A DNA stretch of 63,960 bases, counting the filler, from Collodictyon triciliatum (lineage: Eukaryota), in the NCBI GenBank assembly GCA_043381765.1. It is 8 parts of 8 records of this genome, joined end to end, with 100 filler letters (N's around TTAATTAATTAA, not from the genome) between each part and the next. Parts side by side here need not be neighbours in the genome. Positions count along the whole stretch, not along the records: positions 33,158 to 42,099 come from JBHJMP010003220.1; 7 more parts are not named here. One strand, 5' to 3'. The notes under the pieces were generated by a model. That model saw only the letters and a list, made by a program, of their open reading frames with translations, had not been told where the DNA came from and searched no databases. Below are positions 23,587 to 55,198 of this stretch, piece by piece (position 1 is the stretch's first letter; each line of letters begins with the position of its first letter). The position numbers and the translations under genes are program-made.

Positions 23587-23707
23587 TCTTTCACACGCTT
23601 TTCTGATTATACGTACATACAATATAAGTGTGGGGTGGCACACGGTTGGGGGCGTGACTTGAAAGGCGCCTCGCTTAAATGTCATGAAAAGGAGAGAAAG
23701 GTGGAAA

Positions 23708-24708: not shown

Positions 24709-26079
24709 TTAGTCGTCACAGCAAAGTACAACAAGGTGCGGGTCCTCGCTGTCAGAATGGGTGGTTTCTGCGTCACTCAGTTGCTCTGACGTAACCAGAA
24801 GCTGATGACTTTCGCTGGGTATCTGCGGTTCAGCTGTCTCTGCGGCGCTCAGTTCTGAGGTTTCTCCTGGGCTGGGCTCTGCCTTTGTTGATAAGGCACC
24901 ATTTTTACGAGATCTCTTTTTTCGAGGCTGATTGGATACCTTCTGTTTTACTTTCCTGGACTTAACTAAACTCATCGCTGCTGATGGGCCTCTGGATCCA
25001 GGCTGTGAAGATTCCACAGAGATATGATGGTTATCCTCTTTTTGCTGTGGTATATTGCTGTCTGATATTTCCAGGGGATGTGTAGTTGACTGGGTTAGAT
25101 GCTGGCTCGCAGTCTCGACACACAACGAACTCGGGTCTGTGCCGCCATACAGCTTCGAGCAGCTCTGTTGGACGCGCGTTAGTTTTTCTGCTGAGCGCGC
25201 AGTCCCAACCAGACCATGGACAAGAGGCTGATGTGACCATTTTGATAAATGGCGCTTCTTGTGTTGGGAGTGGGCACACACACGAAGGAAGCTTGTTTGG
25301 AGAAAAGCGACAAAGTGACCTTTGTAGTATATATTGAACCGAAGGGAGATGACGGGGTGTGGTTTTGATGTATTAACTCGGAGGCGGTTAAGAGACAGGA
25401 CAAATGGGCGCGTTTTACGGCGCTTTCCCAGGGGAGCTTTGCCTGGTTCTTGACTTGCATTCAAGTACTCAGAAACGTCGAATCCTGTTATTGCGCCATC
25501 AAGAATCCCTTCAAACTCTTCAAAAATATCTAGATGCAAGTCTGAGCTCGTGTTGAGGCCTGATGCTGAGTCAGATAAGGTTTGTTTTGCATCACCGCTG
25601 TGTCTTGCACCTTCTTGTCCGATGCATGCAGATTTCTCGATGCGAATACGAGGCTGTGTGACTCTTAGCAGCGGGGCCTTGTGCTCCAGACCAATGACAT
25701 CATCCACGGGCCAGCTCATTCCGGTATGATCAAAAAGATCTGCGTGGACTGCCCAGTCAGTTGGTAGAGATGAGTGAATGGATGGATCTGCATGGTGGAT
25801 TTCAATGTAATAGATAGGTGTGACAACGTGGCGCGATGCGATGACCGGAGGTGTTGGGCCGCCCTTTAGAATGATTCTAGCACCCTGCAGCTCCTGCGGA
25901 ATGAAGCGGTCTTGCGAGTGAACATGGTGATTCTGCTCCTGGGTTACTTCGTGGATTTGTGCTTGCTTGGTGTTGGCGGCAGGGCCAGAAGACATGTCAT
26001 CACAAGCGTAGATCTGTAAGTAATCTGGAATGCTGAACAAATCGCCTATGAAGAGGAAGAGCTCTTTGCTATCACACAT
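24709..26079 (-). CDS. Hypothetical protein, possibly nuclear (NLS-like PRKKRSRK)
   Basis: 456-aa uninterrupted ORF with a beta-rich middle segment and low-complexity tail; no family confidently recognised. Confidence 0.65.
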   Translation of the reverse strand: MCDSKELFLFIGDLFSIPDYLQIYACDDMSSGPAANTKQAQIHEVTQEQNHHVHSQDRFIPQELQGARIILKGGPTPPVIASRHVVTPIYYIEIHHADPSIHSSLPTDWAVHADLFDHTGMSWPVDDVIGLEHKAPLLRVTQPRIRIEKSACIGQEGARHSGDAKQTLSDSASGLNTSSDLHLDIFEEFEGILDGAITGFDVSEYLNASQEPGKAPLGKRRKTRPFVLSLNRLRVNTSKPHPVISLRFNIYYKGHFVAFLQTSFLRVCAHSQHKKRHLSKWSHQPLVHGLVGTARSAEKLTRVQQSCSKLYGGTDPSSLCVETASQHLTQSTTHPLEISDSNIPQQKEDNHHISVESSQPGSRGPSAAMSLVKSRKVKQKVSNQPRKKRSRKNGALSTKAEPSPGETSELSAAETAEPQIPSESHQLLVTSEQLSDAETTHSDSEDPHLVVLCCDD

Positions 26080-28900
26080 GCTATCCTCGGCAAGTCCCTT
26101 TCAATCTGCTTGCTTCGAAAATACCCTACATGGGCACGAACAAGAGAAAAAGAAAAAGAGTTTATCATTTACTCATATTAGAAAGCGGCAGTAGAAAAAA
26201 AAATACCGATGAGCATATGGTTGCAAAGGTGAGGAAAGCAGAAAAAACCGGAAGATTCTTCGTATGGGAGATGAATGAGTGTGGATATGATTTTGATAGG
26301 TATGATTGCCAAGAGTATATTTCTGTGCTTTTTCTCGACAGGGGTTTGTTTTTTGTTTTTTGCAGAATGGTGCGATTTGTTCTACCAAAGTTAAGTTTGT
26401 TGCACATATATATATGGATGGTTAGGATGAATCCTTTTGGAGACTTAGCTTTCTTAAAAAGACTCTGAAAAGTATTTACGTATTGCAATATTAAGAAGAA
26501 GAAAAAAAAAGGACGTAGACGTGTGGCAAGACAGATAAACACAAAGAGTTTGAATCGACTAATGTTGCCAGTTCACTCCAAGATGCTTTAAAAAAAAAAC
26601 GAAAAAGGCTGAGCACACAGCGACGTTGGGCGAAAGTGTTTTTGTATTCTTCGTATATAGGTTTTTTTTTGAGTTCATTTGTTTGTTTGCCGTCTGGACA
26701 GGGATGTAAAATAAGAGTGTAATAGATGCGCCCTAGGCGGAGTGGTTTAGTAGGCCGTTCCTGCGAGGGGTTGATTGATTGTTGGGAGCGTTATTTGCTG
26801 GTTGGGTTCTCTGGCTGGATGACTGTGTCATATACCCAACTTTCAAATCAAAAGGACAAAAGTGACAGAATAAAATAGAGATGCAAATGAAAAACACGAA
26901 GAAAAAAAGAATGCAAAAGAATTATGTACTGTGTGGCGCGATGGCAAAAATAATTAGCAAAGCCGTTTCTTGGACATTTCCGATGTCAAAATCATATGTG
27001 CCTTTCCTTTGTGTCATAAATTCGCTCATCTATTTTTCTTGATGTTTTGAATATGCTTTTGGAAACTTCCACAACTCAAAAGAGTGAAATCGAAAACAAA
27101 TATATAGTAAAAAAAAAAGTACGATTCAATACATACGATTTCAAAATTCTGATTTTGGGGTTTCTAGGGGGGAAATCAACTTGAATCGACAATCTTCTCT
27201 GCAGTGGCAAAGGCTTGTCACAAAAGATCGAGTCAATCGAATCAATCTCATCGCTGCGATCGACCAAACCGAACAAGAAGGCAAGTTGCGAGGGTGGATG
27301 GCTCTTGACTAGGGTAAAGCTAAGAGCAGTGGCTGAGGAAAGCTTGAAGCACCCGAGCATTGTGCAAGAAAGAAGCGGGTTGGGGGGTTAGGGTGGTTGG
27401 CGAGATTGATTGGATACACATAAGGAGCAATCCTGACCTCAACACCAATAAAAGCAGATAATATCTGAACATCAAATAACTCCCTCCAAAAAATTAGGAG
27501 TGAAAGAAGACAAAAAAATCTAAATAAAGAGTGTTCTGTCCACTATTTCCCTCGGTGGAGCTCAGCCAGCTTATGTACTTGCATTCCCACCACTCCCCCT
27601 CATTTTTTTAATGGCTGATTGATATATGGAGAGAGATGGCAGTGGAAGAGTTTATTAGGACCAAAGGTTTAAGAAGCAGGTAGATAAAAAAGGTTGTGAA
27701 TTGCATGAAGAGAAATATCAATGGGATGGGTGCATTCAACGGTTTGAGAGTGTCTGGCCTAGTTTTCTGCCCACTGAAGAACACCTTTGTTATAATGTCT
27801 GAAAGACTGTGCGTTTCCCTTTATTTTTTATTAATTTTATTTTTAGTGCAGACAAGGGCGATATTTCACTCGCATGTTTAATGTAAAATCTTGCACACTC
27901 CATGCATTCGTATTTCTGATTCGAAATCGGGCGCGCCAGGAGGCCTTAAATACCCTGCTTGGAGGCTGCGCTGGAAGGTCTGGCCGGCACCAGCGAGAAG
28001 CCGTTACACCCTCGCTCCACCCTTTGCTGCCTCCGGATTTGCAAGTCCTGTTCCAGACATGGGTAATTCCAGCCTATCTATTCAGAGAAGTTGTACTGAT
28101 TAAGTTATTGATTTGCATTGGGTAATGAGGGATGTTTCCAAAATAATCATCCGTTGGAATTTTTACCATAAGAATCTTCCATTCACTGAAGTTTCTCATT
28201 CTAATCACAAAGGCAGAAGCCTCCAAATATGAAACAAGACGAATCTGAAATGCAGACTTGGATGGGTACTGATGAGGAAAATATTTCGCGGCAACATCCA
28301 GACCCGATTCGCTGCGCTAAAAATAAGGCTCCGTCTTCAGACTGCTCTTCCACATTAGTCCGAGACGCGGTCTGGACTTCAAACCGAGTGCGCTCCGAAA
28401 AGGGTCATCCAAATGCGGAGCGATGACGATAGGGTGCGAGTGCATCTCTGCGTTAATCCCGCTCGGTTCGCTGCGGTTCGCATCTGGTTCATCCAGCGTT
28501 GTGTTTGTTGTTCGAAAAGGAGCAACCAGAGCCCAGTGAATGGATTTATCGGTGCCTGGAGATCAATAAAGATCAAATAAATCCACCGGAAAACTGCACA
28601 TTTATATACCTCTCGAGACTTATATAAGCTTGCCCACTTCTGGCATTCACCACACTTGACCGACCACGTTACGCACACATCCACACATCCACACATAGAC
28701 ACATAGACACACATCCACACATCCACACACATAGAGAAAAGATGCGATTGTGGTACAATTGCACCGGATTTCTGAATGAGAGCTGACACTCCATCTTTAT
28801 TCTCTGACGACAAAGCCTCGCTGCACCTTTTTTTCTTCTTCAGACCATTACAGAGATGCCAGAGATAATCGCAATTGGCATGACAGCACGGATAAAAATG

Positions 28901-31900
28901 TCAGGCATCGCCACCAAGCAACTCCCACCAGTCAACCTTGCAATCTGGGACTGGAAAGGTGGAGATACCGTTTGGTTGGGCCATTTGAAGGAGTACAGAA
29001 AAAGCCGAGTGCGACCCTGTTTGCGCACAAGCCTGCAGCCGTGCAAGCAAAGCAGCATGGGCGGAGTGTGCGCGAGCAGCAAGGATGGCGGCAGCCTTTG
29101 CCGGGTTTCTTTCTGTGCCACAGCCAGATGCAAGACATCGAGCCAGTGCCAGTGCCGCAAGTGGATGGCGCGTTTGAGTGTGGGCTGCTTCGAGGGCACG
29201 GAAAGCCGCAGCAGAGGCTACAAGACACGGGGTTGCGTCGTCAGTGGGCTGCATCAGATGCAAGAGGCGTGAGAGGGCATTGGGCGTGAGCGCTTTTGCG
29301 TAGAGTCGCATGGCCGCTGCAGAGTCTGGCTTGCATCCCCAGCCGCATTCTCTGCACAGCGCGGCAGCCTCGACAGTCTCTGCAGGCGACTGCGGCGCAT
29401 TGGCCAGTGATGCAAGGCTCTCGGACGCAAGCGCAAAACCTTGCCTGGCCAGCCGCACCAGCGCCCTCGTTGCCCCAGCATGGCCCAGTCTCACGCATGT
29501 ATGGTACAAATGAACAGCCGTGTCCGAACTCGGCACATCTACTGCCCACCCATTCTCCAGCGCCTGTCCCAGAGTGTGCAACGTTTCCGCTAGGTAGCAC
29601 AGCCCGGGCTCGCATTCTGCCGTGTCAAAAGTGCCCAGCTCCCATTCGTTCGCGATGTGCTCTTGAGCCACGCTCAGAAGATTGTGAGGCTGCAGAATCG
29701 TACCATGCATGTGGTGGTGGGATATGGCGTATTCAAGTAGTGCTTTTGCAGTGCGTTTGCAGTGCATGATTTTCAGGCGTCTGACAAGAGCAGGAATGTT
29801 GCGCTGTGCTATGTGTCTGTGGATTGTGCCTACAATATCTGATGTCTGGTTTGTTACATCACCACGATTGCTCGTTATTTGTGGTGTGAGCTTATAAGAT
29901 TGAAAAATTGCTCCTCTTTTCACGAAGGCATCAAGGTCGATGCTTGAGATGCGAGTGGTCTCATCCATTGTGAGTCCATTCACTTCCAAACAACGTGGGC
30001 CAAATGCATGCGTACTTTTGTATATATGGGGCGCTCTGTATTGAAATAAAACACTCGTGACCTCTATGTGTCTCACCAAAGTCCCAATCACCACTCGTGT
30101 TTCTTCGGAATCTTTCCACGATAGCAAACCCGCTGAATCACATTCCACATCCACACAGCTCAGATCAAAAGCAGGGTCATCAGAAGAGTTGCAAAGTTGG
30201 TTGATTTCACTCAGGCTAAAATCCCAGACTTGCATCCTATGTGATTCCTGCGTGTCTGCGAGTAGTAACCGAAAATATGGCGAACTGACTGCTAAGCTTT
30301 GTTTTGATTCAATAGCTGCCATCATGTTGCATTGAGGCAACGTATGATGAAAAGCGACGTAACTTGTGTCCGTGCGTAAATCATGATAAAAGACACTGGA
30401 GGAATCTACACCAGAATAAAAGAGTCGCGGGCTAGTTTTTTCACACAGCAGTATTTTTGAGCTGTGAGATGTTTCAGCTGATTTTTTATCGTCATGTTTA
30501 ACGAATTCTTTGATATCTGCAAACAGTAATGAACATACTATTGCGGTCATAGGCTGAATCTGGTACAAAGTGGTTTGTTGGACAACATCATGAATTAAAA
30601 TGCATCCTCTTTCTGCTGCAGATGCAGATGCTACCCACGGCTGATTGCCACTCCCTGATACAGGACATAATGTTTGGATACGATATGCATGTGCTTTTAT
30701 TCGACATATTTCATGTGATGTGAAAGAGTTTGTAACAACAAGGTCCCCTCTTTCTAGTCCTGATACCAGTAAAATACGACCCTTGGGACCATTACCAACT
30801 GAAACAGAGGTAATACAAGTAACAGGTCCATTATTAATGTAAATAGATCTTTTCACACGCGAATGGTTCATATCCCACACTAGGATGACACTATTATCAT
30901 TCTCGTCGCTATCACATGACGCAAGGGTTGCAAACTCATCGCCGAGTATGGTTGCAGATGTGACAGGCGAATGATGTCCATTGTCTATTTTCTCTACTGC
31001 CAAAGGCAGGTCGAAAGTCCAGCTCATAATATTTCCCGTCGATGTGTTTGCCAATATTGCGACTTGTGTTTTGGATTTCTTGACGGCTTGAACGTATCTA
31101 TCTATCGACCTACATGATTCCAAATAGGAATTAGAGTGCCAAAACTCTTTCCATGCCAAGAAACTTGGATAGAGAGAACGTAAATGAATCTGCGATTGTA
31201 TGTCCCATATCTGAACACAGCCCAACGAATCGTAAGCCATCAGCAGCTGTTCAGACTCCATGACAAAAATAGTAGGCTGGGGTCCAACTCTGATGCTGCA
31301 TACATTAGGGCGCGCTGTTGGTAGTCCAAACGTATGAATGTGGCCTGTCTTTAGGGCAACAACTAACGTCGGCTCACCACTTGTAGAGGTATAGGCAAAT
31401 ATATCATTCACAACATCAGAGTCTGCCCCAAATGCTTCTGAATGAATCCGAGCAACAATATCATCTATGGTAGTTGCCTCTGATGCAGCCTCTGAATAAT
31501 CGTTCGTCGGAGGTTCATTAAGGCTTTTAGGAGAGCCGATACGAAAATACGTCATGTCTACCCGAACGATGTAAATGCAACCTGACGCACAAAGCGTAAC
31601 CATGAACGGCCGACTGTCAAAGTCCAATCCTCTTGGAAAACCTGGGTGGGTGCAGATTTTGCGAACCCAGCGAGTGTGGTAATCCAGCCTGCGCAGAAGA
31701 CATCCTGTTCGTGGGCACCAAAGGCAGACCACCGAGTCGCAGCCACCAGTCACCACCATTTCAGAGTCGTATGCATCCCGGACGACACATAGAGCATTGA
31801 TTTTCGCAACATGCCCAGTGACTGAGCGCGTCCGCAGTTCTACCAGGTCCACGAGATGCAGTGTGCAATCCACGACAAAGGCAGCCAGCATCTGGGTAGA

Positions 31901-32602
31901 GAGAGTCTGGATGGCATTGACGGCATCACCTAATGCAGCGGGCGTGAGACGGGCCACGAGGCCACCCGAGTGCAAATCCCACTGCTGGACTGTGTTGTCG
32001 GCGTCAGCAACAAGAACATGGAGCCGCGATACATCTGCACAAGGCACAAGACACATGGGGCCGAACCCCCGAGCTACTATGGCTGGCATGGCTGTCACAC
32101 AACCCAGCAGATTGGCACCTGTCAAGTCAGCCCCGCGCAGGTCGCAGTCGCGGATGTCCGCCCAGCGCAGGTCGGCTCCACGCAAGGAACCGCCGGCCAG
32201 CTGTGCCCTGTGCAGGTCAGCGCCGCACAAGGAAACCCCGCGCAAGTCGCACCCACTCAAGGAAACACCTCCGCGAACGAGAATCGAGGCTGCCATCGGC
32301 GCACAGCGGCAGGAGGCGCACACACGGCGGAGCCACTCGGCGCGGGTCAGAGCTTCGTCCTTGAAGAGCGTGCGGCAGCGGCAATGGCGTGTGTGTTCAA
32401 GCAGAAGACGCAGCCCGCAAGACAGAGTCGGGCTGTTTGGAGAAGAGTCAAGGGGCTGCGCAGCAGAGACAAAGCGCCCGAGCGAGTCAGCCCCCGCAAG
32501 CAGGTGCGTCTGCAGAAGAAGGAGCCTTTCCGGGGGCCACGCGTCGTTTGCTATCGCGCTGTGTTGAGTGCCCTTCTCGAGCTTTTCTTGCGGGTGCGCC
32601 AT
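28901..32602 (-). CDS. Pentapeptide-repeat + WD40 + Sel1-like repeat protein
   Basis: Intronless 1233 aa; LRGADLRWADIRDCDLRGADLTGANL pentapeptides; GH/WD motifs; C-terminal Sel1-like units (LENGWAVDV..AVHLY, CGWGCKPD..AMRLY, SGCGTERNPAKA). Confidence 0.85.
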   Translation of the reverse strand: MAHPQEKLEKGTQHSAIANDAWPPERLLLLQTHLLAGADSLGRFVSAAQPLDSSPNSPTLSCGLRLLLEHTRHCRCRTLFKDEALTRAEWLRRVCASCRCAPMAASILVRGGVSLSGCDLRGVSLCGADLHRAQLAGGSLRGADLRWADIRDCDLRGADLTGANLLGCVTAMPAIVARGFGPMCLVPCADVSRLHVLVADADNTVQQWDLHSGGLVARLTPAALGDAVNAIQTLSTQMLAAFVVDCTLHLVDLVELRTRSVTGHVAKINALCVVRDAYDSEMVVTGGCDSVVCLWCPRTGCLLRRLDYHTRWVRKICTHPGFPRGLDFDSRPFMVTLCASGCIYIVRVDMTYFRIGSPKSLNEPPTNDYSEAASEATTIDDIVARIHSEAFGADSDVVNDIFAYTSTSGEPTLVVALKTGHIHTFGLPTARPNVCSIRVGPQPTIFVMESEQLLMAYDSLGCVQIWDIQSQIHLRSLYPSFLAWKEFWHSNSYLESCRSIDRYVQAVKKSKTQVAILANTSTGNIMSWTFDLPLAVEKIDNGHHSPVTSATILGDEFATLASCDSDENDNSVILVWDMNHSRVKRSIYINNGPVTCITSVSVGNGPKGRILLVSGLERGDLVVTNSFTSHEICRIKAHAYRIQTLCPVSGSGNQPWVASASAAERGCILIHDVVQQTTLYQIQPMTAIVCSLLFADIKEFVKHDDKKSAETSHSSKILLCEKTSPRLFYSGVDSSSVFYHDLRTDTSYVAFHHTLPQCNMMAAIESKQSLAVSSPYFRLLLADTQESHRMQVWDFSLSEINQLCNSSDDPAFDLSCVDVECDSAGLLSWKDSEETRVVIGTLVRHIEVTSVLFQYRAPHIYKSTHAFGPRCLEVNGLTMDETTRISSIDLDAFVKRGAIFQSYKLTPQITSNRGDVTNQTSDIVGTIHRHIAQRNIPALVRRLKIMHCKRTAKALLEYAISHHHMHGTILQPHNLLSVAQEHIANEWELGTFDTAECEPGLCYLAETLHTLGQALENGWAVDVPSSDTAVHLYHTCVRLGHAGATRALVRLARQGFALASESLASLANAPQSPAETVEAAALCRECGWGCKPDSAAAMRLYAKALTPNALSRLLHLMQPTDDATPCLVASAAAFRALEAAHTQTRHPLAALALARCLASGCGTERNPAKAAAILAARAHSAHAALLARLQACAQTGSHSAFSVLLQMAQPNGISTFPVPDCKVDWWELLGGDA

Positions 32603-32936
32603 TTCTTCCTGTTTGTCGTGTGGGTGTGCGTGTTTGTGTGTCTCTGGGCTTGGGCTGCTAATGTGGTTTATTTCTTTGCCTTCGGCTGCTCTGCTTTTGG
32701 CGGGTGCTTTGGCTTCAGGGCCGGGCGTGCAGGCGCGCGACGGATGGTGTCTTGGGGCCGTGGTGATGCGTGCGATGCATCAAACGCCGCGAGTTGTGAT
32801 GCACAGGCGCCGCAGAGGGAGGAAGACGCGGAAAGGGGCTGCCCGCAACACGGACAACTTTGCATGGCCTTTACATGAGAAAATCCAGCAGTAAGATTAA
32901 TTTGTGGTTGAGGCATTCAAAAAATAACAATTATTG

Positions 32937-33057
32937 TGTATGTTTGTATGTATGTATGTATGTATGTATGTATGTATGTATGTATGTATGTATGTATGTA
33001 TGTATGTATGTATGTATGTATGTATGTATGTATGTATGTATGTATGTATGTATGTAT
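32937..33057. repeat. (TATG)n microsatellite at contig end
   Basis: Direct reading. Confidence 0.95.
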
Positions 33058-33869
33058 NNNNNNNNNNNNNNNNNNNNNNNNNNNNNNNNNNNNNNNNNNN
33101 NTTAATTAATTAANNNNNNNNNNNNNNNNNNNNNNNNNNNNNNNNNNNNNNNNNNNNTTTACTGGTGCAAATTAGTGTATTTTTCAGTTCTTTATTTGAC
33201 ATAAATTTCAACCTAGAGTTGAACTATAGAATCTATTTATTTTAACTAAAATTATGGACCTGATAATATACTGAAAATGATGATTGAATAAGACAAAACA
33301 AAATTTATCAGCATTATTAAAAATTGAAATAAAATATGACTTTATTTTCTCTAATATCAACACAATTTTCTAATACATTTTATGATACTTATGTGCCAAA
33401 TTATAAAATCTATCGAAATTTACATTTTAAAAATGCTGTAAAAAGAGAAATATTCTTAAAAACTACACTTCACAATTATCATTTATAAAATATTTTGGTC
33501 AAATGATATTATACCATGCAACTAAGATATGTTAGTTTATAAAATTGTGCCTTGGCTTTTTTTTTCCATACTCTCATACACATTATGCTATCATGTTATA
33601 TGAATTTTTCTGTTAAACTTAGAAATAGTGATAAAACTTCGAATCAAAATTGCAATTTCTGTTCAAAATTATTTGATCAAAAATTCAAAATAACGGAAAT
33701 ACGATTACATATCAGTTACTATCAAATAGAAATCACAATATTCGAATTAATTAGAAAACAGAAGGCCGAAAATTACACGAAAGAAAATATTGGATGAATT
33801 AAGAAAGTTAAAAGATGCTGATTATTGAAAAATCTGATGAATTATAATACGTCAATAGGCTCTACACCA

Positions 33870-36800
33870 ATGAGGAAAAGTCTACAACTTCAGCAAATAA
33901 TACTGGGTAAGCCCTTTTCATTTCTAATCATTCTCTTTTCTATTATAACATATTCGTCTATTAGTTGCCACCATCCTTGTATACATTTCGTGTTCTTCTG
34001 CGCAAGTTTATTCGATTTACACTGTCGGAACGGGCCATACAAGTACTGTGTGGAGTGTTGCTATTACTTCTGATGGTTCAAAAATTGTTTCAGGGAGTTC
34101 TGATAAAACAATAAACATTTGGTATTTTTCTGATGGAGCTTTGATTCGCACATTAACTGGTCATATTAGTGATGTTTACAGTGTTGCTGTTACTCCCGAT
34201 GGTTCTAAAATTGTTTCTGGAAGCACTGACCGAACAATCAAAATCTGGAATCTTTCTGACGAAGCTTTGATTCGCACATTAACTGGTCATAACGATGGTA
34301 TTTGGAGTGTTGCTGTTACTCCTGATGGTTCAAAAATTGTTTCAGGAAGTTGGGATAACAATATTAAAATTTGGAATCTTTCTGATGGAGCTTTGATTCG
34401 CACATTGACTGGTCATACCCGAAATGTTCGCAGTGTTGCTGTTACTCCCGATGGTTCAAAAATTGTTTCAGGAAGTTGGGATAACAATATTAAAATTTGG
34501 AATCTTTCTGATGGAGCTTTGATTCGCACATTGACCGGTCATACTTCTTATGTTCAAAGTGTTGCAATTTCTCCTGATGGTTCAAAAATTGTTTCTGGAA
34601 GTGAAGATTATACAATCAAAATATGGAATCTTTCTGATGGAGCTTTGATTCGCAACTTGACTGGTCATGCTGGCATTGTTCAAAGTGTTGCTGTTACTCC
34701 CGATGGTTCAAAAATGGTCTCTGGCAGTTATGATAATACAATCAAAATCTGGAATATTTCTGATGGAGCTTTGATTCGCACATTGAGTGGTCATACTAGT
34801 ACTGTTCTAAGTGTTTTCGTATCCCCTGATGGCTCAAAAATTATTTCTGGGAGCCATGACCGAACTGTTAAACTTTGGAATTTTCTTGATGGAAGTCCTG
34901 TATACACCAGAGGTTCCAAAGTTACAAGTATCATTTCTTCTCAGTCTAAGTCAACTTTTATTTCAGGGCACTCAGATAATATTATAAGGATATGGAATCT
35001 GTTAAATGGAAATCTAATCAGGACATTTATTGGACATACAAGTGTCGTTAACGCACTGACTTTAACAGCAGATGGCTCCAAAGTAATTTCTGGAAGTTCA
35101 GACAAAAGAATAAAAGTATGGAATGTTGACGACGGTTCTTTGATTCAATCATTTGAAATTCATACTGATTCAGTGAGCTGCGTTACTTTGACAGCGGATG
35201 GAACCAGTATTATATCAGGAAGCAACGATAAAACAATCAAAATTACAAGTATTTCAGATGGAGCTGTAATTAGAACGTTAAGTGGACACACTGGAATAGT
35301 CACAAGCGTTGCTTTAACTCCTGACAGCTCAAAAATTGTGTCTGGCAGTGCGGAAAAAACAATTAAAGTTTGGAATTTTATTGATGGAACATTAGTTCAA
35401 GATATAAAATTTCACACTGATTCTGTGAACTGCGTTGTAATCACATCAGATGGAACAAAAATTGTTTCTGGAAGCAGCGATAAATCAATCAAAATAACAA
35501 GCATGTTGGATGGGAGCTTAATTCGCACACTTAATGGGCACACAGGAATCGTTAAGACAGCTATTATTTCTCCAGATGGCTCTAAAATTATTTCTGGAGG
35601 CAGTGATAATACAATAAGAATATGGAATTTTTCAACTGGAGTCACAATAAATATAATGAACGAACATAAAGGTCCAGTAAATGGAATATCAGTTGTTTCT
35701 GATGGCACGAAATTTTTGTCAGGAAGCGACGATACAACAATCAAATTGTGGAACTTTCCTGATTTCAGCTTGATTCTGACCGTTTCAGGCCACTCAAGTT
35801 CAGTGAATAGCGTTGCTTTGAGCCCAGATAAAACTAAAATTGTGTCAGGAAGTAGTGACAAAACAATAAGAATTTGGAATTATGCTGATGGTTCTCAAGT
35901 GCTTTCGATAAATGCCCATGTAAATGCTGTAAATAGTGTAGTTGTTTCGGCTGATGGAACAAAAATAGTGTCAGGAAGCAGTGATGGCACAATAAAAATG
36001 TGGAATTTCTCGGATGGTTTATTATTGAAAACATTTAGCGGACATACTTCAGCTGTTCGAAGCGCAGCAATATCATCAGATAGTTCAACAATAGTATCAG
36101 GAAGTGACGATACAAATATAAATGTTTGGAGAGTTTCAGATGGAATTTTAACTCGAACATTATCTGGACATACAAAAGGAGTGAATTCTGTTTTTATCAT
36201 TCCTGATAATACCAAAATTATATCAGGCAGTGCTGATTTTTCGATAATAATATGGAATCTATCAGATGGAGCATTACTCAGAACACTTACCGGTCACGGA
36301 AATGCTGTCAGATGTGTCATTAACTCTCTAGATGGAACAAGAATCATATCTGGAAGCAGCGATAACACAATCAAAATTTGGAATATATCAGATGGCACGT
36401 TAATTAGAACAATAACAGGACATACGAGTTCAGTAAATAGCATTTCAATATCATCTGATGGAACAAAATTATATTCTGGGAGCAGTGATAAATCGGTAAA
36501 AATATGGACATTATCAGACGGAAGAGAAATTCGAACACTTCTGAGTCACACCGATTCCGTCAATAGTGTTTTCGCAACTATTGATTCAAAAATAATTTCA
36601 GCAAGCACTGATAGATTTATCAAAGTCTGGAGTCCATGCCAAGGAGGATATTTTTTCAATCAACAATCAAACACATGCGAAAAATGTCCAACTGGCTCTT
36701 ATAATAACGGAAATGAGCTCACATCTTGTTTATTATGTCCAACTGGAACTTATAATCCATCGACTGGCTCCACAAGCATTAAAGATTGTCTTCTGTGTGA

Positions 36801-39800
36801 GGAAGGGACATACAATAATCTTTTGGGTCAATCAATTTGCAAAAAATGCGAGGCTGGAACATTTAATAATCTAAAGGGTCAAGTGGCATGTAGTAATTGC
36901 ACTGCTGGATTTTACAGCAATTCAGGAGATAAGTTATGTGCTCCATGCCTTGCAGGAACATTCAATCCAACCATCAGGGGTGCTGGAAATTCTTCATGTC
37001 TTTTATGCGAACCAGGAACATACAACAGCGTCGATGGAAAGTCGAGTTGTTTTGACTGTCCTGCTGGATTTTACATGAATGAGAAAGGAAAGCAATTTTG
37101 TAATCCATGCCCGACTGGAACTTACTCAAACAAAACAAAATCAATCACCTGTGAAAAATGCCCGGCTGGTTCCTACAATCCAAATGTTGCATCAATCAGC
37201 ATAAGCAACTGTCAGCCATGCCCTAAAGGAAGATATTCATCAAAATCAGGAGAATCATCATGCGAACTTTGTCAGCCTGGCTCATACAATCCACAAAGTG
37301 GTCAACACTCGTGCATCAATTGTACATATGGCACTTATAATCCAAAGTTTGGTTCAACAAGCAACTTCTCATGTATTAATTGTCCACAAGGCACTTTTGA
37401 AAATAGCTATAAAGACGATTGCACATCATGTCCAGCTGGTACATTCAACAATAAAACTGGCTCATTCAATCAATCATCATGCATTTCATGTCCAAATGGA
37501 AGCTACAGCCCAGAGAGAAGCTCATCATGCAGCTCATGCTCATCAGGATACTATCAAAAAGAAGGAATCACAAAAGACCCAAAATCATGCCATGCATGTC
37601 CAAAAGGCACATTTAACTCAATATCCGGCTCATATGGATATAAATCATGTAATGAATGTCCACAAGGTACTTGGAATGATAAAAACGGTCAAGCATCATG
37701 TGCATCATGCCCAGCGGGTACATTCAACAACAAAACTGGCTCGTTCGATCAATCATCATGTATTTCATGTCCAAACGGAAGCTACGGCTCAGAGAGAAGC
37801 GCAACATGCAGCTTGTGTTTATCAGGATTCTATCAAAAAGAAGGAGTCATAAAAGATTCAAAATCATGCTATGCTTGTCCAAAAGGCTCATTCAATTCAA
37901 TATCCGGCTCATATGGGGACAAATCATGTATTGAATGTCCACAAGGTACTTGGAATGATAAAGATGGTCAAGCATCATGCACATCATGTCCAGCTGGTAC
38001 ATTCAACAATGAAACTGGCTCATTCAATCAATCATCATGTATTTCATGTTCATATGGAACCTACAGCTCAGCAGGAAGTTTATCATGCAGTTTGTGCTCA
38101 TCAGGATTCTATCAAAAAGAAGGAATAGCAAAAGACTCAAAATCATGCTACGCTTGTCCAAGAGGCACATTCAACTCAAACTCCGGCTCATATGGAAACA
38201 AAACATGTATTGAATGCCCACAAGGTACTTGGAATGATAGAGATGGTCAGGCATCATGCACATCGTGTCCAGCTGGTACATTCAACAACAAAACTGGCTC
38301 ATTTGATGAATCATCATGTATTGCATGTCCTAATGGAAGCTACAGCTCAGATAGAAGTTCATCATGCAGCTTATGTTTATCAGGATTCTATCAAAAAGAA
38401 GGAATCACAAAAGACTCAAAATCATGCTATGCTTGTCCAAAAGGCACATTCAACTCAAACTTCGGCTCATATGGAAACAAAACATGTATTGAATGCCCAC
38501 AAGGTACTTGGAATGATAGAGATGGTCAGGCATCATGCACATCGTGTCCAGCCGGTACATTCAACAACAAAACTGGCTCATTCAATCAGTCATTGTGCAT
38601 TTCATGTCCGAATGGGAGCTACAGCTCACCAGGAAGCTCATCATGCAATTCATGCTTATCAGGATTCTATCAAAAAGAGGACATCACAAAAGATTCAAGC
38701 TCATGCTATGCTTGTCCAAAAGGCACATTCAACTCAAAATCCGGCTCATATGGAAACAAATCATGTATTGAATGTCCACAAGGTACTTGGAATGAAAAAG
38801 ATGGCCAAGCATCATGCACATCATGTCCAGCTGGTACATTCAATAATAAAACTGGCTCATTTTATCAATCATCATGCATTTCATGTCCAAACGGAAGCTA
38901 CAGCTCAGAGAGAAGCTCATCATGCATTTTATGCTCACCAGGATTCTATCAAAAAGAAGATATCATAAAAGACTCACAATCATGCTATACTTGTCCAAAA
39001 GGCACATTCAATTCAAAATCCGGCTCGTATGGAAACTCTTCATGCATCGAATGTCCACAAGGTACTTGGAGTGATAGAGATGGTCAAGCATCATGCACAT
39101 CATGTCCAGCTGGTACATTCAATAACAAAACAGGCTCATTCAATCAATCATCATGCATTTCATGTCCAAATGGAAGCTACAGCCCAGAAAGGAGCGCATC
39201 ATGCACATTATGCTTACCAGGATTCTATCAAAAAGAAGACATTATAAAAGACTCGGAATCATGCTATACATGTCCAAAAGGCACATTCAACTCAAATTCC
39301 GGCTCACATGGGAACAAATCATGTATTGAATGTCCACAAGGCACTTGGAATGATAGAGATGGTCAAGCATCGTGCACATCATGTTCAGCTGGCACATTCA
39401 ACAACAAAACTGGCTCATTCGATGAATCATCATGCATTTCATGTCCAAATGGAAGCTACAGCTCAGAAAGAAGCGCATCATGCACATTATGTTCACCAGG
39501 ATTCTATCAAAAAGAAGACATTATAAAAGACTCGGAATCATGCTATACATGTCCAAAAGGCACATTCAACTCAAATTCCGGCTCATATGGAAACAAATCA
39601 TGCATTGAATGTCCACAAGGCACTTGGAATGATAGAGATGGTCAAGCATCATGTACATCATGTCCAGCTGGTTCATTCAACAACAAAACCTGCTCATTTG
39701 ATGAATCATCATGCATTTCATGTCCAAATGGAAGCTACAGCTCAGAAAGAAGCTCTTCATGCAGTTTGTGTTCATCAGGATTCTATCAAAAAGAAGGAAT

Positions 39801-42099
39801 CATAAAAGATTCACAATCATGCTATGAATGTCCAAAAGGCACATTCAACTCAATATCCGGCTCATATGGAAACAAATCATGTATTAAGTGCCCACAAGGT
39901 ACTTGGAATGATAGAGATGGTCAAGCATCATGTACATCATGTCCAGCTGGTACATTCAATAATAAAACTGGCTCATATAATCAATCGTCATGCATTTCAT
40001 GTCCAAATGGAAGCTACAGCTCAGAAAGAAGCTCTTCATGCAGTTTGTGCTTATCAGGATACTATCAAAAAGAAGGAATCATAAAAAACTCAAGCTCATG
40101 CTACACCTGCCCAAAAGGCACATTCAACTCAATATCCGGCTCATATGGAAACAAATCATGTATTAAGTGCCCACAAGGTACTTGGAATGATAAGTATGGT
40201 CAAGCATCATGCACATCATGTCCAGCTGGTACATTCAACAACAAAACTGGCTCATACAATGTATCATTATCATGTATTTCATGTCCAAATGGAAGCTACA
40301 GCTCAGAAAGAAGCTCATCATGCATCTCATGCTTATCTGGATTATATCAAAAGGAAGGAATCATAAAAGACTCGGAATCATGCTACACTTGTCCAAAAGG
40401 CACATTCAACTCAAACTCCGGCTCATATGGAAACATATCATGTATTCAATGTCCACAAGGCACTTGGAATGATAGAGACGGTCAAGCATCATGCACATCA
40501 TGTCCAGCTGGTACATTCAACGATAAAACTGGTTCATTTAATCAATCATCATGCATTTCATGTCCAAATGGAAGCTACAGCTCAGAAAGAAGCGCATCAT
40601 GCAGCTTATGCCCGACACGCTCAACCACAATTAAAGAAGGCTCCAAATCAATAGATGATTGCAAATGCTTAGATACTTATGTGTCATATGATGGCATTTG
40701 CACATGTCCTCCAGGACAATTCGAGGACGGAAGTGAATGTGTTTCGTGCAGACTTGGCTCATACAAACCAACAAACAGCACGAATTTCTGCTTATCTTGT
40801 GGTGATAAATTTACGACAAAAAACAATGGCTCTCTTTATTCAACCGATTGCGAATGCAAGATAGGATTTGAGTTGAGAAACTCCACTTGTGAATGCAAAC
40901 CAGGATGGTATGAAAAGCAAGGAAACTGCTACGAATGTCCTTCAGATACATACAGCGATGATTATGGACTAAAATATTGTAAAATGTGTCCTGAGGGATT
41001 TGAATGTCAAGGAACCAGTCAACCAACAGTTGCCCCTGGATATTGGCAGACTCAAACTAAAAATGGAGAATATGTCGCTTATAAGTGCTTGAATGAAAAT
41101 GCATGTAACGGAGGAAATAAAACTTGTGCTGATGGATACATTGGACCATTATGTAGTATTTGTGAAAATGGATACGGAAAAACTGGATATTATTGCACTA
41201 AATGCCCACCAAAAGGAGTGAACATATTCTTGATATTCCTGAGCTTTTTTATTCCACTAGCCTTTGTTTTCTTCATGATAGAGCAATCAAGACAAACAAG
41301 AACGGGAAATATTCAAATCTTGAAATCCCTCTCCTCACATTTCCAAGTTTTGTCATATTTGGCGAACTTTGATGTAAAATGGAGCTCAATCATAATTTCA
41401 GCTTTGAAAATTCCAGCCCTATTTTCATTTTCCCTTTCAATAGACAGCTACCCAATTGAATGCCAAATAGAAATGTCAGTGTATGAAAAATTATTGTTTA
41501 CGATGTTGAGTCCAGTAATTTTGACATTAATAATGCTAATATTCGTTTTGATGAAAGATTTGAGGAGACTTTACAAAAACGAGATTTCAAGAAGTAGCTT
41601 TACACTCAATCATTTTCGGGAAGAAATCATGTACTCGATGTTGGTCATGCTGTTTTTTGTCCATCCTTCAATCACATCAAGCGTCGCACAAATATTTCCA
41701 TGTGAAAAACTCGGAGATATAAGTTATTTGAAAGCTGATATGTCGATTTTATGCGAAGATGAAATTTACAAATTTTGGAGGAATATTTCTTTTGTTTTCC
41801 TTTTTGCCTATTGTATCGGCGGACCGCTCTTAATTTTAGTCAGAATCATTCGCAAAAGAACAGCACTGGCGAATCCAACTTCGAAAACATATGCACTTTT
41901 CAGATTTTTGATTGATGGATACACTGAAAAGTGCCAATACTGGGAGGTCGTCCTGATGATGCAAAAGTTGGTCATTGTGATGATAAGCACGTTCTTTCCT
42001 GCTTCGCTACAAATATACTTTGGTCTGTGGCTGCTGTTTCTGATGATTGCTTCGACCATTTATTTCAGGCCATTCATATCCAATGTGCTGAAAAAGTCA
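33870..42099 (+). CDS. Large surface protein: signal peptide, ~20 WD40 repeats, Cys-rich (GCC2/TNFR-like) stalk, multi-TM C-terminus (truncated)
   Basis: ATG at 33870 and a 58-nt GT-AG intron (33907-33964) give MRKSLQLQQIILVATILVYISCSSAQ in frame with track ORF 34048; CxxCPxGT repeats; GPLCSICENGY motif followed by TM helices. Confidence 0.9.
34030..34890 (+). repeat. Near-identical 126-bp WD40-coding tandem repeats (7 units)
   Basis: GATGG(T/C)TC(A/T)AAAAT recurs at 34072, 34198, 34324, 34450, 34576, 34702 and 34828. Confidence 0.92.
37420..40610 (+). repeat. 279-bp (93-aa) Cys-rich coding tandem repeat, about 11 units
   Basis: CPAGTFNNKTGS..CPNGSYS..GFYQKE..CPKGTFNS..CPQGTWND unit recurring with ~279-bp period. 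Confidence 0.92.
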
Positions 42100-42199
42100 N
42101 NNNNNNNNNNNNNNNNNNNNNNNNNNNNNNNNNNNNNNNNNNNTTAATTAATTAANNNNNNNNNNNNNNNNNNNNNNNNNNNNNNNNNNNNNNNNNNNN

Positions 42200-42225
42200 T
42201 TTATGTTAATCATGATTAACATAAA
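42200..42225. repeat. Perfect 26-bp palindrome at contig edge
   Basis: TTTATGTTAATCA|TGATTAACATAAA. Confidence 0.93.
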
Positions 42226-42420
42226 TTCACGACAGCCGCTTGGTATTTTTAATAAATAGCAATATGAATTTCCTATTTTAGGAAATATGGTAATTGCTAT
42301 TTTCCAGTTTTAGGAAATATTCATTGCTATATGAAAATTCAAAAATTCAATATTTTAATTCAAGTTGTAATTCAGGCTTAAAGATTTCTCGCTAATATAA
42401 ATTAATATCCCTACAACAAT

Positions 42421-42945
42421 ATGGCCGACGTAATTAAACCTAAACCTGAACGCAAGCAGCTTACTATGGAAGAAATTGAAAGAGACTATGAACCAACTAC
42501 CCTTACTGCTTTAAAAAAAGGAGACTACGTTGCATACAAAACAAAAGCTCGAACTTGGAAAAGTAAATCCGGGGATGAAGTAGAATATGCTTCAAAAATT
42601 AATCAAGGTTTTGTATCTATGCTTCCAGACCCAGACAAACAACAAGGCTTTCGTTCCACTGGTCTCATCTACGGATTCAAAGGAGCGAAGGGGGGTGCCT
42701 GGAGTCAGAATGAACGATTTGTTGAAAAAGTATGGAAAGTAAAAGATGAAGTATTTAAAAACCGAAAGAAAGCAAATGCTGAGAAAGCGTATAAAAAGAA
42801 AACAGAAAATTATAATAAACGCAAAAGTGACGAAGCAGAAGAATTTAAAAGTAATAAAAAGGCTGCTCAAGAAATTGAAGCTGACCCAGAGCTTTTAGAA
42901 CTCGCAAAGAAAGCTCGTAGGTTTAGACAAAAACAAACAGAATAA
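42421..42945 (+). CDS. Conserved unknown protein, homolog of 5383-5868
   Basis: GDYVAYKTKARTW...NQGFVS...GAWSQN, basic helical tail; convergent with the integrase. Confidence 0.85.
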   Translation: MADVIKPKPERKQLTMEEIERDYEPTTLTALKKGDYVAYKTKARTWKSKSGDEVEYASKINQGFVSMLPDPDKQQGFRSTGLIYGFKGAKGGAWSQNERFVEKVWKVKDEVFKNRKKANAEKAYKKKTENYNKRKSDEAEEFKSNKKAAQEIEADPELLELAKKARRFRQKQTE

Positions 42946-42971
42946 ATTTTTTATAAAATAAAAAATTTATT
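42941..42971. terminator. AT-rich hairpin (14-bp stem, 3-nt loop) between convergent stops
   Basis: AATAAATTTTTTAT-AAA-ATAAAAAATTTATT. Confidence 0.55.
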
Positions 42972-44933
42972 TTTTACTTTCTCTGCGTTTTTTATCTCTT
43001 TCACGTTCTCTTGCCAATTCTTTTTCTTTTTGTGATAGTGACATACTAGCTCTACGCATAGCTTGAGCTTCGGCGTTCTTTTTTTTAAATGCTTCTTCAC
43101 CCATAGCCTCCCTTTGTTTTTTTTCCTTTCAGCTCTAGCTACTGAAGCAGCTGTGGGTTGCTTTTTACTTGGTGGTATAGGTGTAGCACTTTCAGCTTGG
43201 ACTTCTGCTCTTTCAAGAATTCTTTTTTGTGCTTCTTTAATAAGGTCTTGTGCCTCATTGTATTCTCTCATAAGTTTTCTAAACTCAACTTCTGTTATAT
43301 CTTTTGTTTTTATTGGTTTAGGTATTTTACTTTTCTCTGCTATAATCTGTTCGTCAGATATAACAGCATAACCAGGTGGCAATGCTTCAAGGAGTTTATA
43401 CCCTGGTGGATTTTTTAAACCACCCTTTGCATCTACCTTGGCTTTGATTTGTGCATAGATTCTATTAACATCACTTGTCAATTCTGCAATATTCACACCC
43501 GCTTCTTCTCTTCGCCTCTCTATTTCCATTTGTTCTTTTCTTTTATCTTCATTTTCTTTTAATAAACGTTTTGTATCAGATATAGATCTTTTCAAAGGTA
43601 TTTTCTTTTTGCGCTCAACTTCTACAGACTTGGCTCTTTCTCTTAATTTTTCTTTAGTTTTATCTATTTGCGCTATAGTAGGTGGCTCAACAGCATCATC
43701 ATCATCATCAATAGCGGGTGGCTCTGGTGTATTGGGTGGAGCTTTTGTTTGTTTTGTTTTTAATATTTCTGGTTGGTCATCACCACCATCCTTTGCTTCT
43801 GTAAATGATACAGCCACTGGTTTATTTAAACTCTCTGCTGGAACTTTTAATAAATTTCCTCTCAGGAATCTTTTTGAATTTAACTTTGATTCTGGGATTC
43901 GTGCATTGTATCCCAAATCAGCAGCTCTGCTTAATTCTGCATTCACTTCTTTGATTTTATATTTCATAGCACGATATGGCAATTTTGAATTATACACTTT
44001 ATCAACTTTATATACGATAGGTCCCCACTTTGGCATAAAGCCTTTTTTTTCACTTATTTTCTTTCTTAATTCATTTGGAAGATTTAAACTCTCCATCGCA
44101 ATTCTTACAAAATCTCCTACATTTAATTTATCCCTTTTTTGTTTTTTAGCAATCTCATCTAGTCTTCCTATGTCTGCATCTAAAATCTTGTCAAAGTTTT
44201 CAGGAACCAATGCAACATTTGGAGCGACTCCAGTAGTTCTATTAATTTTATCATTTAAACCATCTACAATTTTTTGTAAATTATTTCTTCTAAAAGGACT
44301 CTTACCTGTTTCCATATAGTGTTTACCTAAAGCCCTTTTCAAATCTCCATTTGCTCGCTCGACAAACGCCTGAGACGTAGGTGTGTGTGGAGTTGAATAA
44401 ACCACTTTTTTTATTCTTAGTGTGTCTCTTGACCAAGAAGATAAAACCCTTTTTTTTTTACCATTTTCTGTTATTGGTGTTGTTAAAAATTTAAATTCAT
44501 TATCACATTGAATTACGGATAATCCTGGATATCTACCTTTAATTGATATTAGTGCATTTTGAACACTCTCAAGTTGTTTATTAATAATTTCTTCAGCAAA
44601 TAATTTTCTTGTTGCAGGTACTAAACCTACTAAAACATAATCATATTTAATTCGCTGATTATCTTCATTAAATTTTTTTGTATCTATTAAATCTATTTGC
44701 ATATAACCAGCATCTTCAATATTGAAGGCTGTTGTCTCTGTAGCTTTTGTTTTGGGTTGAGTTCGTTGATATGTTGTATTTGTTGATATAACTTTTTTTA
44801 TAAAACTCTTTGGTATGGTTGGAGGATTCATTTGAAAATATTGATATAAGGCATTTATACTTTTTTCAGGTCCACTTTCAAACTGACTTTGTATTCTATC
44901 TGTTCTTTGCTTATCACGTTCCTGTTTATTCAT
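42951..44933 (-). CDS. rve DDE integrase with long charged C-terminal extension (probable frameshift near the 3' end; corrected stop 42967)
   Basis: MQIDLID, IQCDNEF, PTSQAFVERANGDLK, GDFVRI, KGFMPKW; homologous to 4153-5382. Confidence 0.9.
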   Translation of the reverse strand: MNKQERDKQRTDRIQSQFESGPEKSINALYQYFQMNPPTIPKSFIKKVISTNTTYQRTQPKTKATETTAFNIEDAGYMQIDLIDTKKFNEDNQRIKYDYVLVGLVPATRKLFAEEIINKQLESVQNALISIKGRYPGLSVIQCDNEFKFLTTPITENGKKKRVLSSWSRDTLRIKKVVYSTPHTPTSQAFVERANGDLKRALGKHYMETGKSPFRRNNLQKIVDGLNDKINRTTGVAPNVALVPENFDKILDADIGRLDEIAKKQKRDKLNVGDFVRIAMESLNLPNELRKKISEKKGFMPKWGPIVYKVDKVYNSKLPYRAMKYKIKEVNAELSRAADLGYNARIPESKLNSKRFLRGNLLKVPAESLNKPVAVSFTEAKDGGDDQPEILKTKQTKAPPNTPEPPAIDDDDDAVEPPTIAQIDKTKEKLRERAKSVEVERKKKIPLKRSISDTKRLLKENEDKRKEQMEIERRREEAGVNIAELTSDVNRIYAQIKAKVDAKGGLKNPPGYKLLEALPPGYAVISDEQIIAEKSKIPKPIKTKDITEVEFRKLMREYNEAQDLIKEAQKRILERAEVQAESATPIPPSKKQPTAASVARAERKKNKGRLWVKKHLKKRTPKLKLCVELVCHYHKKKKNWQENVKEIKNAEKVKNKFFIL

Positions 44934-45018
44934 ATTTATATTAACATAAACTTTTTTATAAATAAACGTAACTTAAAGATAAATTGAAATTGTATTTTAT
45001 ATATAATTTCAATTAAAA

Positions 45019-45207: not shown

Positions 45208-45232
45208 ATAAACTGAGATTTATCATTGAAGT

Positions 45233-49521: not shown

Positions 49522-49527
49522 AATATA

Positions 49528-55155: not shown

Positions 55156-55198
<43 letters not shown>

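Follow-up and report, generated by a model that had tools for sequence, protein, structure and literature searches.

Canonical WD40 propellers are textbook intracellular scaffolds. The gene described here, from Collodictyon triciliatum (assembly GCA_043381765.1), joins an array of such WD40 repeats to a cysteine-rich stalk and a multi-pass membrane tail. It lies on contig JBHJMP010003220.1, which makes up positions 33158-42099 of the window, the 63,960-nt stretch of joined contigs to which all positions below refer. Several described systems resemble it in part, and what we say of them draws on parts of the cited papers. Highly repetitive (HR) WD40 proteins have been reported in prokaryotes, protists and fungi, with most sites conserved and predicted hotspot sites on the top face diverse (Hu et al. 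2017, PMC5587647). In the fungal HET-E family, repeats are up to 100% identical and are exchanged between loci, and positive selection acts on codons 7, 9, 25 and 27, the neighbours of the conserved codons 8 and 26; they belong to the D-A loop and B-C turn of the top platform (Paoletti et al. 2007, PMC1805685). The plant receptor kinase CRINKLY4 has a signal peptide, an N-terminal seven-bladed propeller that its authors call WD40 and a TNFR-like Cys-rich domain before the membrane; its propeller is thought to bind ligand, and each blade holds a disulfide (bioRxiv 10.1101/2020.08.10.245050). New propellers are continuously amplified from single blades, and links to innate immunity have been suggested (Pereira and Lupas 2022, PMC9218822).

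Our analysis suggests that the Collodictyon locus encodes a very large surface receptor whose WD40 propellers face outward or into the lumen of the secretory pathway, a reading to which we give a probability of about 0.55. The signal-peptide-like N-terminus, the Cys-rich stalk and the tail family all point to an extracellular placement. The strongest contextual evidence for a location outside would be the tail, whose relatives carry mostly classical extracellular or ligand-binding modules. By comparison, HR WD40 proteins as described occur in the cytosol of bacteria, fungi or protists and in many cases are fused to STAND NTPase, kinase or caspase modules, whereas the present array appears to follow a signal-peptide-like leader and to precede a disulfide-rich stalk and a membrane tail. 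The fungal HNWD proteins, HET-E and HET-D among them, are likewise cytosolic, while our protein is predicted to be extracellular. CRINKLY4 has one propeller and one Cys-rich domain, then a single membrane helix and a cytoplasmic kinase; the present gene has three propellers, about 31 stalk repeats and several helices, and no kinase in its 3′-truncated product. The blades of CRINKLY4 are not Pfam WD40-type sequences, and we regard it as an architectural analogue rather than a member of the same family. The original prediction took the locus for a possibly undescribed system. The pattern of conserved scaffold and diverse hotspots proved to be a known property of the HR class, as far as the text of PMC5587647 describes it, and only the combination with the stalk and tail is new: the highly repetitive WD40 array, canonical and free of disulfides, would form the distal ectodomain of one member of a very large protist receptor family that seems to be undescribed.

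A register alignment placed 21 WD40 blades at residues 30-905 of the spliced product. The Pfam scan of this product, of which the best 25 of 52 matches are considered here, assigned 20 stretches to PF00400 (WD40), with an E-value of 1.2e-192 and 616.7 bits, the cut-off being 27. About 20 repeats had been expected; the repeats were there, and their number is 21. Blade 8 is degenerate, with 39 residues and without GH. Blade 21 has a one-residue deletion. Blades 1-7, of 126 nt each, form propeller 1 (34015..34896, plus strand) and start at 34015, 34141, 34267, 34393, 34519, 34645 and 34771 on that strand. Blades 8-14 (34897..35769, plus strand; Pfam WD40) and blades 15-21 (35770..36642, plus strand) make up a presumed second and third propeller, the grouping by seven following from alignment to propeller 1. 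Tandem Repeats Finder reported a 126-bp period with 6.7 copies and 81% matches at 34054-34893. All seven blades of propeller 1 carry the full His/Ser/Asp/Trp set.

We then modelled propeller 1 with AlphaFold2. The input was residues 26-330, in an alignment to which the second and third blade sets of the same gene contributed. The model was a closed seven-bladed propeller of 28 strands, with a predicted local distance difference test score (pLDDT) of 94.3 and a predicted template modelling score (pTM) of 0.91. The top Foldseek matches of this propeller were 7BIG, 7BIE and 2YMU, at 48-49% identity and a root-mean-square deviation (rmsd) of 0.8-0.9 Å. Two of these, 7BIG and 7BIE, are WRAP-T designs, and 2YMU is the natural parent-type, ‘a highly repetitive propeller’ of Nostoc punctiforme (48% identity, template modelling (TM) score 0.93, rmsd 0.8 Å). 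The next matches were PkwA (5YZV), WDR5 and LIS1, the TM scores of 2YMU, WDR5 and LIS1 being 0.89-0.93. A search of the ESM Atlas returned only generic WD40 clusters, at 0.84-0.86.

Propeller 1 resembles the HR WD40 proteins, as characterised in the part of the literature drawn on here, in its consensus-type blades, conserved scaffold and diverse top-face hotspots. The class is defined by an internal repeat identity of at least 0.7 (PMC5587647). In our own register, the authors' WDSP pipeline not having been applied, blades 1-7 have an identity of 0.16 at six variable columns, 0.79 at the 36 scaffold columns and about 0.70 overall. Blades 2-6 reach about 0.80, and blades 9-20 (0.28 in the patch columns, 0.51 in the scaffold) fall well below 0.7.

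The variation in propeller 1 is concentrated in two patches per blade, formed by codons 9-11 and 13 (+24..+38 from the blade start) and by codons 29 and 31 (+84..+92). The residues after GH in blades 1-7 are TSTVW, ISDVY, NDGIW, TRNVR, TSYVQ, AGIVQ and TSTVL, and those after SGS are SDK, TDR, WDN, WDN, EDY, YDN and HDR; the patch strings originally quoted were all exact. The first seven repeats had been called nearly identical. This holds for blades 2-6, which have 79-91% nucleotide identity, but not for blades 1 (61-72% to the others) and 7 (61-74%). Codons 10, 29, 13, 31, 9 and 11, in that order, are the six most variable of the 42. Of the 225 pairwise nucleotide differences between these central blades (2-6), 117 (52%) fall in the six codons, where 14% would be expected of six codons in 42. 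None of 20,000 multinomial shuffles reached the observed share, although this null takes pairwise counts as independent, which makes the P value too optimistic. The clustering of differences in the six codons is far beyond chance. Blades 2-6 have an identity of 0.91 in the scaffold columns, compared with 0.12 in the six variable ones.

Nei-Gojobori estimates between blades 2-6 gave a synonymous divergence (dS) of 0.325 and a non-synonymous divergence (dN) of 0.049 for the scaffold, and a proportion of non-synonymous differences (pN) of 0.62 and a dN of 1.33 for the variable codons. Nine units of the stalk repeats, used as an internal control, had a dS of 0.333 and a dN of 0.085. Because the two dS values agree (0.325 and 0.333), the blades and the stalk units are equally ‘young’ and only the patches are out of line. 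The putative selection signal, dN 1.33 against a scaffold dS of 0.33, comes from 5-7 paralogous blades of one gene. Homogenisation cannot be told from a recent burst of amplification, the scaffold dS of 0.33 being the same as that of the stalk repeats. The patch variability is seen between blades of one gene copy, so that ‘hypervariable’ applies to the blades only.

Blades 3 and 4 differ at 11 nucleotides, of which nine are in codons 9-13 and two elsewhere. There is no difference between them in codons 20-42 (the last 69 nt), which include an identical WDN patch. Partial gene conversion would account for such a mosaic, as would very strong selection acting locally.

The AlphaFold model places columns 9-11 of each blade in the D-A loop and columns 29 and 31 in the B-C turn; column 13 occupies the second position of strand A. 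Since the D-A and B-C loops lie at the same end of the sheet in an antiparallel meander, the variable sites share one face. The mapping of the variable sites on a predicted structure, proposed as a check of the original prediction, therefore placed them on one face of a confidently modelled seven-bladed propeller (the pLDDT above). Trp, Tyr or Arg occupies 12 of 42 variable positions in propeller 1 but 2 of 72 in blades 9-20 (Fisher P 9.6e-5). The later blades are bland and less diverse in the patch columns and more diverged in the scaffold. Enrichment in these three residues is typical of interfaces.

These patches bear on whether the product might instead be a structural or adhesive protein of the surface or of a secretory organelle (a cell coat, adhesion fibre or extrusome), in which differences between blades are drift at unconstrained loops after amplification. 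The very large size (more than 2,724 residues), the tandemly amplified stalk and the bland top faces of propellers 2 and 3 suit such a protein, and the Pfam scans of the 3′-truncated product recognised no signalling domain. However, a patch dN about fourfold the scaffold dS goes beyond what relaxed constraint alone would give, the patches are enriched in Trp, Tyr and Arg, and the tail is a conserved multi-pass domain rather than a simple anchor. We consider a structural role unlikely.

The comparison with HET-E is close at the level of single codons. Its selected codons 7, 9, 25 and 27, as given in the part of PMC1805685 drawn on here, correspond to codons 11, 13, 29 and 31 of our blades, which flank Val12 and Asp30. 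The claimed equivalence of the variable positions to the HET-E top-face sites was thereby borne out. A HET-E-like recognition system placed outside the cell would have its array reshuffled by unequal crossing-over or gene conversion within and between paralogs, the propeller-1 faces of individuals would differ, and the receptor would serve self/non-self, mating, prey or pathogen recognition. Besides the codon positions, the mosaic of blades 3 and 4, with the same B-C patch, a wholly different D-A patch and two differences elsewhere, is what such exchange could leave. Of the 17 best-supported differences of freshwater metagenome contigs within 34054-34893, 11 are in codons 9-13 of blades 2 and 4; these come from the 40 differences listed of 834, and short contigs from any blade, paralog or relative would look alike. 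On the other side, no paralog of the gene was found in the window's other contigs (tblastn, E ≤ 1e-3), and a scaffold dS of 0.33 sets the blades well apart from HNWD repeats, which are close to identical (up to 100%, against 79-91% here). No death-effector module was seen, nor could a NACHT or HET domain be identified among the Pfam matches considered: blade 1 starts at residue 30 and is followed only by WD40, Ephrin_rec_like, a DUF7630-like module and helices. There is no room for a NACHT domain, because this domain map leaves no sufficiently long unassigned stretch. The same patch pattern is moreover general in HR WD40 proteins, as described in the parts of PMC5587647 drawn on here, and for this reason it is in itself no sign of an immune or allorecognition role. 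We therefore hold a HET-E-like system to be improbable, and an immune-like hypervariable role is speculative.

A related possibility is that a WD40 array of the cytosolic type, as in fungal or bacterial immune sensors resembling NOD-like receptors, was exported and now forms a variable tip on a surface receptor. A repertoire of binding faces for prey, pathogens or conspecifics would then come from amplified blades and exchanged patches, with coupling through a TRP/Flc-like tail, and the receptor would amount to a HET-E system acting outside the cell. We regard this as improbable to a like degree.

The ends of the blades offer a further hint of the compartment. No W-D dipeptide occurs at blade ends in 34015-36642, and W-N was found at 14 of the 18 recognised ends. 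N-x-S/T sequons (as W-N-x-S/T) are present at nine of these 18 ends, against 50 of 1,235 (4%) in 87 WD40 homologues. In the propeller 1 model they sit in the C-D loop; the variable patches are on the other face. The W-N-x-S/T blade ends may be an adaptation to N-glycosylation in the secretory pathway.

Entry into that pathway depends on the 5′ end of the gene. The frame of the WD40 region is open from 33949 to the contig end at 42099, with a TAA at 33946, and has no Met ahead of spliced residue 263. For these two reasons an upstream exon is required. Our analysis predicted a 37-nt exon 1 at 33870..33906 (plus strand; translation and splice enumeration), which encodes 12 residues and one base of the next codon. 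Its product, MRKSLQLQQIIL, comprises the start codon, a basic n-region and the beginning of a hydrophobic core. An alternative in-frame ATG at 33837 would add 11 residues. The predicted spliceosomal intron at 33907..33964 (GTAAGC...CTATTAG, 58 nt, plus strand) was deduced from sequence features, and its removal is needed to link the ATG with the WD40 frame because 58 is not a multiple of 3. Among 32 frame-compatible ATG...GT-AG models from the splice enumeration, this intron is the only one with a GTAAG donor. Exon 1 joined to 33965 onward gives an open frame of 2,724 codons that reaches the contig end.

The first part of exon 2 (33965..34002, plus strand; Kyte-Doolittle hydropathy) encodes the remainder of the hydrophobic core and a small-residue c-region (...SCSSA). 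The hydrophobic stretch of this frame ends in ...ISCSSA and is followed by QVYS, with the predicted mature N-terminus at 34003; the cleavage site follows from the -3/-1 rule. The leader as a whole runs from a basic n-region through a hydrophobic core of about 11 residues to positions -3 and -1, both of them small residues. Within the first 35 residues the nine-residue Kyte-Doolittle maximum is 3.4, and residues 4-28 form the hydrophobic segment. The N-terminus reads as a signal peptide, as originally predicted, and this character depends on the proposed intron, the lone GTAAG model of the 32.

The best explanation of the locus is a 3′-truncated, intron-bearing protist gene in the standard code. 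A bacterial gene model was rejected: the only in-frame bacterial-type start, GTG at 34048, falls within blade 1, and the only named relatives of the tail are Tetrahymena proteins. Ephrin_rec_like repeats are typical of eukaryotes. A ciliate nuclear code is unnecessary, the frame being open under the standard code.

The gene model or the assembly might itself be at fault, with the WD40 array misjoined to the Cys-rich and membrane part, or with the 5′ exon unused, so that no WD40 protein is secreted. The contig is short (8,942 bp) and stands inside a concatenated record, it holds two internal tandem arrays, and the gene model is a prediction from DNA. Contigs from other samples also show many ‘joints’ between blades, but these have short sides of 21-34 nt, of the kind about which the tool warns. 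Against an artefact, a single uninterrupted frame of 8,135 nt spans both the WD40/stalk and the stalk/tail junction without a stop, and the exon-2 frame itself already encodes a hydrophobic leader immediately upstream of blade 1. With nucleotide differences of 9-39% between them, the blades are distinct enough to be assembled. Five sequencing runs were listed, each with a low share of words (0.05-0.10): three labelled as freshwater metagenomes, one as a subsurface metagenome and one without a label; no RNA run was among them. Short contigs from four of these runs cover most of the gene, with mismatches ranging from few to about 13% of their length; none spans the intron as RNA and none reliably bridges the blades. 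We judge an artefact very unlikely.

The Cys-rich stalk follows the array directly (36643..41208, plus strand). Pfam identified 31 Ephrin_rec_like stretches in it (E 2e-213), together with matches to TNFR_c6, NCD3G and TNFR_ELAPOR1. It contains 169 Cys, against four in the WD region of about 880 residues. Tandem Repeats Finder reported an array of 279 bp (93 residues) at 37420-40000 on the plus strand, with 9.3 copies and 89% matches; the copies are 86-95% identical. The stalk array and the WD blades have equal synonymous divergence, as if they had expanded together or been homogenised at the same rate. A DUF7630-like module lies at about 41083-41205 (plus strand), where PF24633 scores 21.6 bits (E 2.5e-4), below its 27-bit cut-off. 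It sits where those relatives that pass the cut-off carry DUF7630.

The membrane tail (41209..42099, plus strand) has at least five hydrophobic helices and a conserved Cys-Cys hairpin. By hydropathy, helices occur from residue 2428 to the end and there are none between residues 28 and 2428. The proposed arrangement of WD40 repeats on a long Cys-rich stalk is therefore what the sequence has, with no membrane helix between the two. The multi-pass anchor is also present, but it is cut off at 42099, where a run of N begins.

A phmmer search with the tail (positions 40999-42099, 367 residues) returned 7,298 cluster representatives with E-values of 0.001 or below, 60 of them at 1e-30 or below, and the best matches align to query residues 3-360 of 367. 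The best relative, P0125, has an E-value of 4e-63 and 36% identity, and a 293-residue fragment has 53%. BLASTP matched a Tetrahymena thermophila ‘transmembrane protein’ at 27% identity (E 8e-21). Past the aligned end, near relatives continue for about 70-150 residues and the Tetrahymena protein for about 830. The tail is thus homologous over 350 residues to that of multi-pass protist proteins, including Tetrahymena ‘transmembrane protein, putative’ entries, which share the juxtamembrane order of Ephrin_rec_like, DUF7630-like module and helices. What differs is the ectodomain. The 12 closest long relatives have TIG, Filamin, FG-GAP, PQQ, RCC1, DOMON, LRR or Laminin_G before Ephrin_rec_like and DUF7630, and 61 shorter relatives showed the same themes and an OpuAC binding domain. 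Beta-helix and EGF domains were also found in these two sets, and the ectodomains usually stand ahead of one Ephrin_rec_like and one DUF7630; our gene has WD40 in this place. This suggests a modular receptor chassis with interchangeable ectodomains. In line with an outside location, 45 of 107 complete-looking relatives start with a hydrophobic leader. The RCC1 and PQQ propellers of relatives show that propellers of ‘intracellular type’ are used on the same chassis. No paper on DUF7630 or PF24633 was found in our literature search, and nothing on the tail family appeared among the papers listed for Ephrin_rec_like or GCC2_GCC3 in protists. This family of 7,298 representatives seems to be undescribed, and its highly varied ectodomains merit study.

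The combination of WD40 with this stalk or tail is rare. No convincing case was found among the 431 relatives and loci examined; the screens were crude regular-expression tests on listed matches, and they indicate rarity rather than absence. None of the 150 best tail relatives has three or more WD40 motifs. A protein search with the junction gave 1,193 matches of 1,491-4,745 residues, of which the best 120 were screened. P0102 and P0111 were flagged by a loose motif screen, but in both the Cys-rich window overlaps with the WD region. Under a stricter screen, none of the 120 was flagged. Both WD40 and Cys-rich motifs were found together in none of 83 shorter junction matches. In metagenome contigs, none of 78 loci matching the WD40/stalk junction has an open reading frame (ORF) with both WD40 and CxxCxxGxY motifs, and of 40 pattern matches to the tail none was confirmed. 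Our literature search for WD40 propellers combined with a signal peptide and a Cys-rich ectodomain gave no paper on protists.

Another unusual fusion of WD40 with a membrane protein was seen among the junction matches. Five ciliate-like proteins of about 1,750-2,330 residues (P0038, P0071, P0075, P0080 and P0119) combine a long cytosolic WD40 array with an ion-transport or PKD-type channel domain. They were rejected as a precedent: they lack a hydrophobic N-terminus, which makes their WD40 cytosolic.

If the locus encodes a surface receptor as we propose, the signal peptide would send the N-terminus across the membrane, and three tandem canonical WD40 propellers would stand on a stalk of about 1,500 residues, at the end away from the membrane. 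The stalk, of presumably disulfide-rich Ephrin_rec_like/TNFR-like repeats, would be anchored by the DUF7630-like module and a multi-pass membrane domain, the anchor being drawn from a huge and uncharacterised protist family whose ectodomains are interchangeable. Ligand probably binds to the top face of propeller 1, where a near-fixed scaffold would present varied residues, rich in Trp, Tyr and Arg, in the D-A loops, A strands and B-C turns of its blades. This asymmetric composite binding surface could have arisen through recent amplification of blades together with diversifying selection on the patch codons, partial gene conversion being a possible contributor. Propellers 2 and 3, with their bland top faces, probably serve as spacers or a platform. 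The tail may pass binding on; it is possibly a domain for ion conduction or transport, with fungal TRP/Flc proteins as distant relatives. What the analysis shows is the sequence anatomy, the fold of propeller 1, the clustering of the variable codons and the membership of the tail in its family, while splicing, secretion, ligand binding and signalling are inferred.

Several points weigh against this proposal. Splicing, the start codon and expression are predictions from the DNA, and the cleavage site and membrane orientation are our own reading of it. The WD blades have no stabilising disulfides, unlike the extracellular propeller of CRINKLY4, and among the complete-looking tail relatives a hydrophobic N-terminus is confined to those 45 of 107. 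Diversifying selection is suggested by paralogous blades of a single gene copy, in which gene conversion or saturation can distort the estimates. Where long tracts are identical between blades, their order and copy number in the assembly are uncertain. The gene ends at the contig end, so any cytoplasmic signalling domain lies beyond it. The channel-like coupling through the tail is a lead only. PF06011 (fungal TRP/Flc) gave weak matches (E ≤ 0.001) in eight of 73 relatives, two of the 12 long and six of the 61 shorter ones, reaching the curated cut-off, 28.5 bits, or more in four (P0129, P0131, P0220 and P0249), and Pfam found no match to it in the truncated tail of our gene. The tail of relative P0133 was modelled at a pLDDT of 88.8, but its comparison with solved structures gave no convincing match (Foldseek best E 0.04), and the best VIA-align Z of 8.5 over 114 residues is within the range for unrelated helical bundles.

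If true, a eukaryotic receptor with a disulfide-free WD40 propeller outside the cell would widen the known uses of the fold. It would also link recently amplified propellers, surface diversification of the HET-E type and a very large protist receptor family. Propeller 1, small and well folding in the model, offers with its seven patch sets a concrete test case for ligand binding. Should its face turn out to be polymorphic, free-living protists would have in it a candidate system for recognition. To our knowledge, almost nothing is known of non-self discrimination in such organisms.

The window is a chain of separate contigs at 1-8961, 9062-18011, 18112-33057, 33158-42099, 42200-51135, 51236-55031, 55132-60258 and 60359-63960. 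Seven artificial joints, to which no strand applies, lie between them (8962-9061, 18012-18111, 33058-33157, 42100-42199, 51136-51235, 55032-55131 and 60259-60358). Each has the form N44-TTAATTAATTAA-N44, with stops in all six frames. Because the window consists of joined contigs, genes beside the JBHJMP010003220.1 piece are not its genomic neighbours, and the true context of the gene is only 33158-42099 (8,942 bp, GC content 0.369). A 312-N gap at 23806-24117 is separate from the seven joints.

Contigs 1-8961 and 42200-51135 are AT-rich, with dense intron-free ORFs, and each encodes one DUF5906 (D5-type primase-helicase-like) protein, at 5930-8326 and 45233-47593, both on the minus strand. The two proteins have a mutual identity of only 26%. 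An rve integrase was found at 4153-5382 on the former contig. The two contigs look like two distinct integrating or virus-like mobile elements, polinton- or virophage-like. With a GC content of 0.467, the piece at 24118-33057 stands clearly above its neighbours; a (TGTA)30 microsatellite (32937-33057) forms its end. This piece carries an intron-free ORF of 1,233 residues (28901-32602, minus strand) with pentapeptide repeats and weak WD40-like propeller matches, and may come from another genome compartment or organism.

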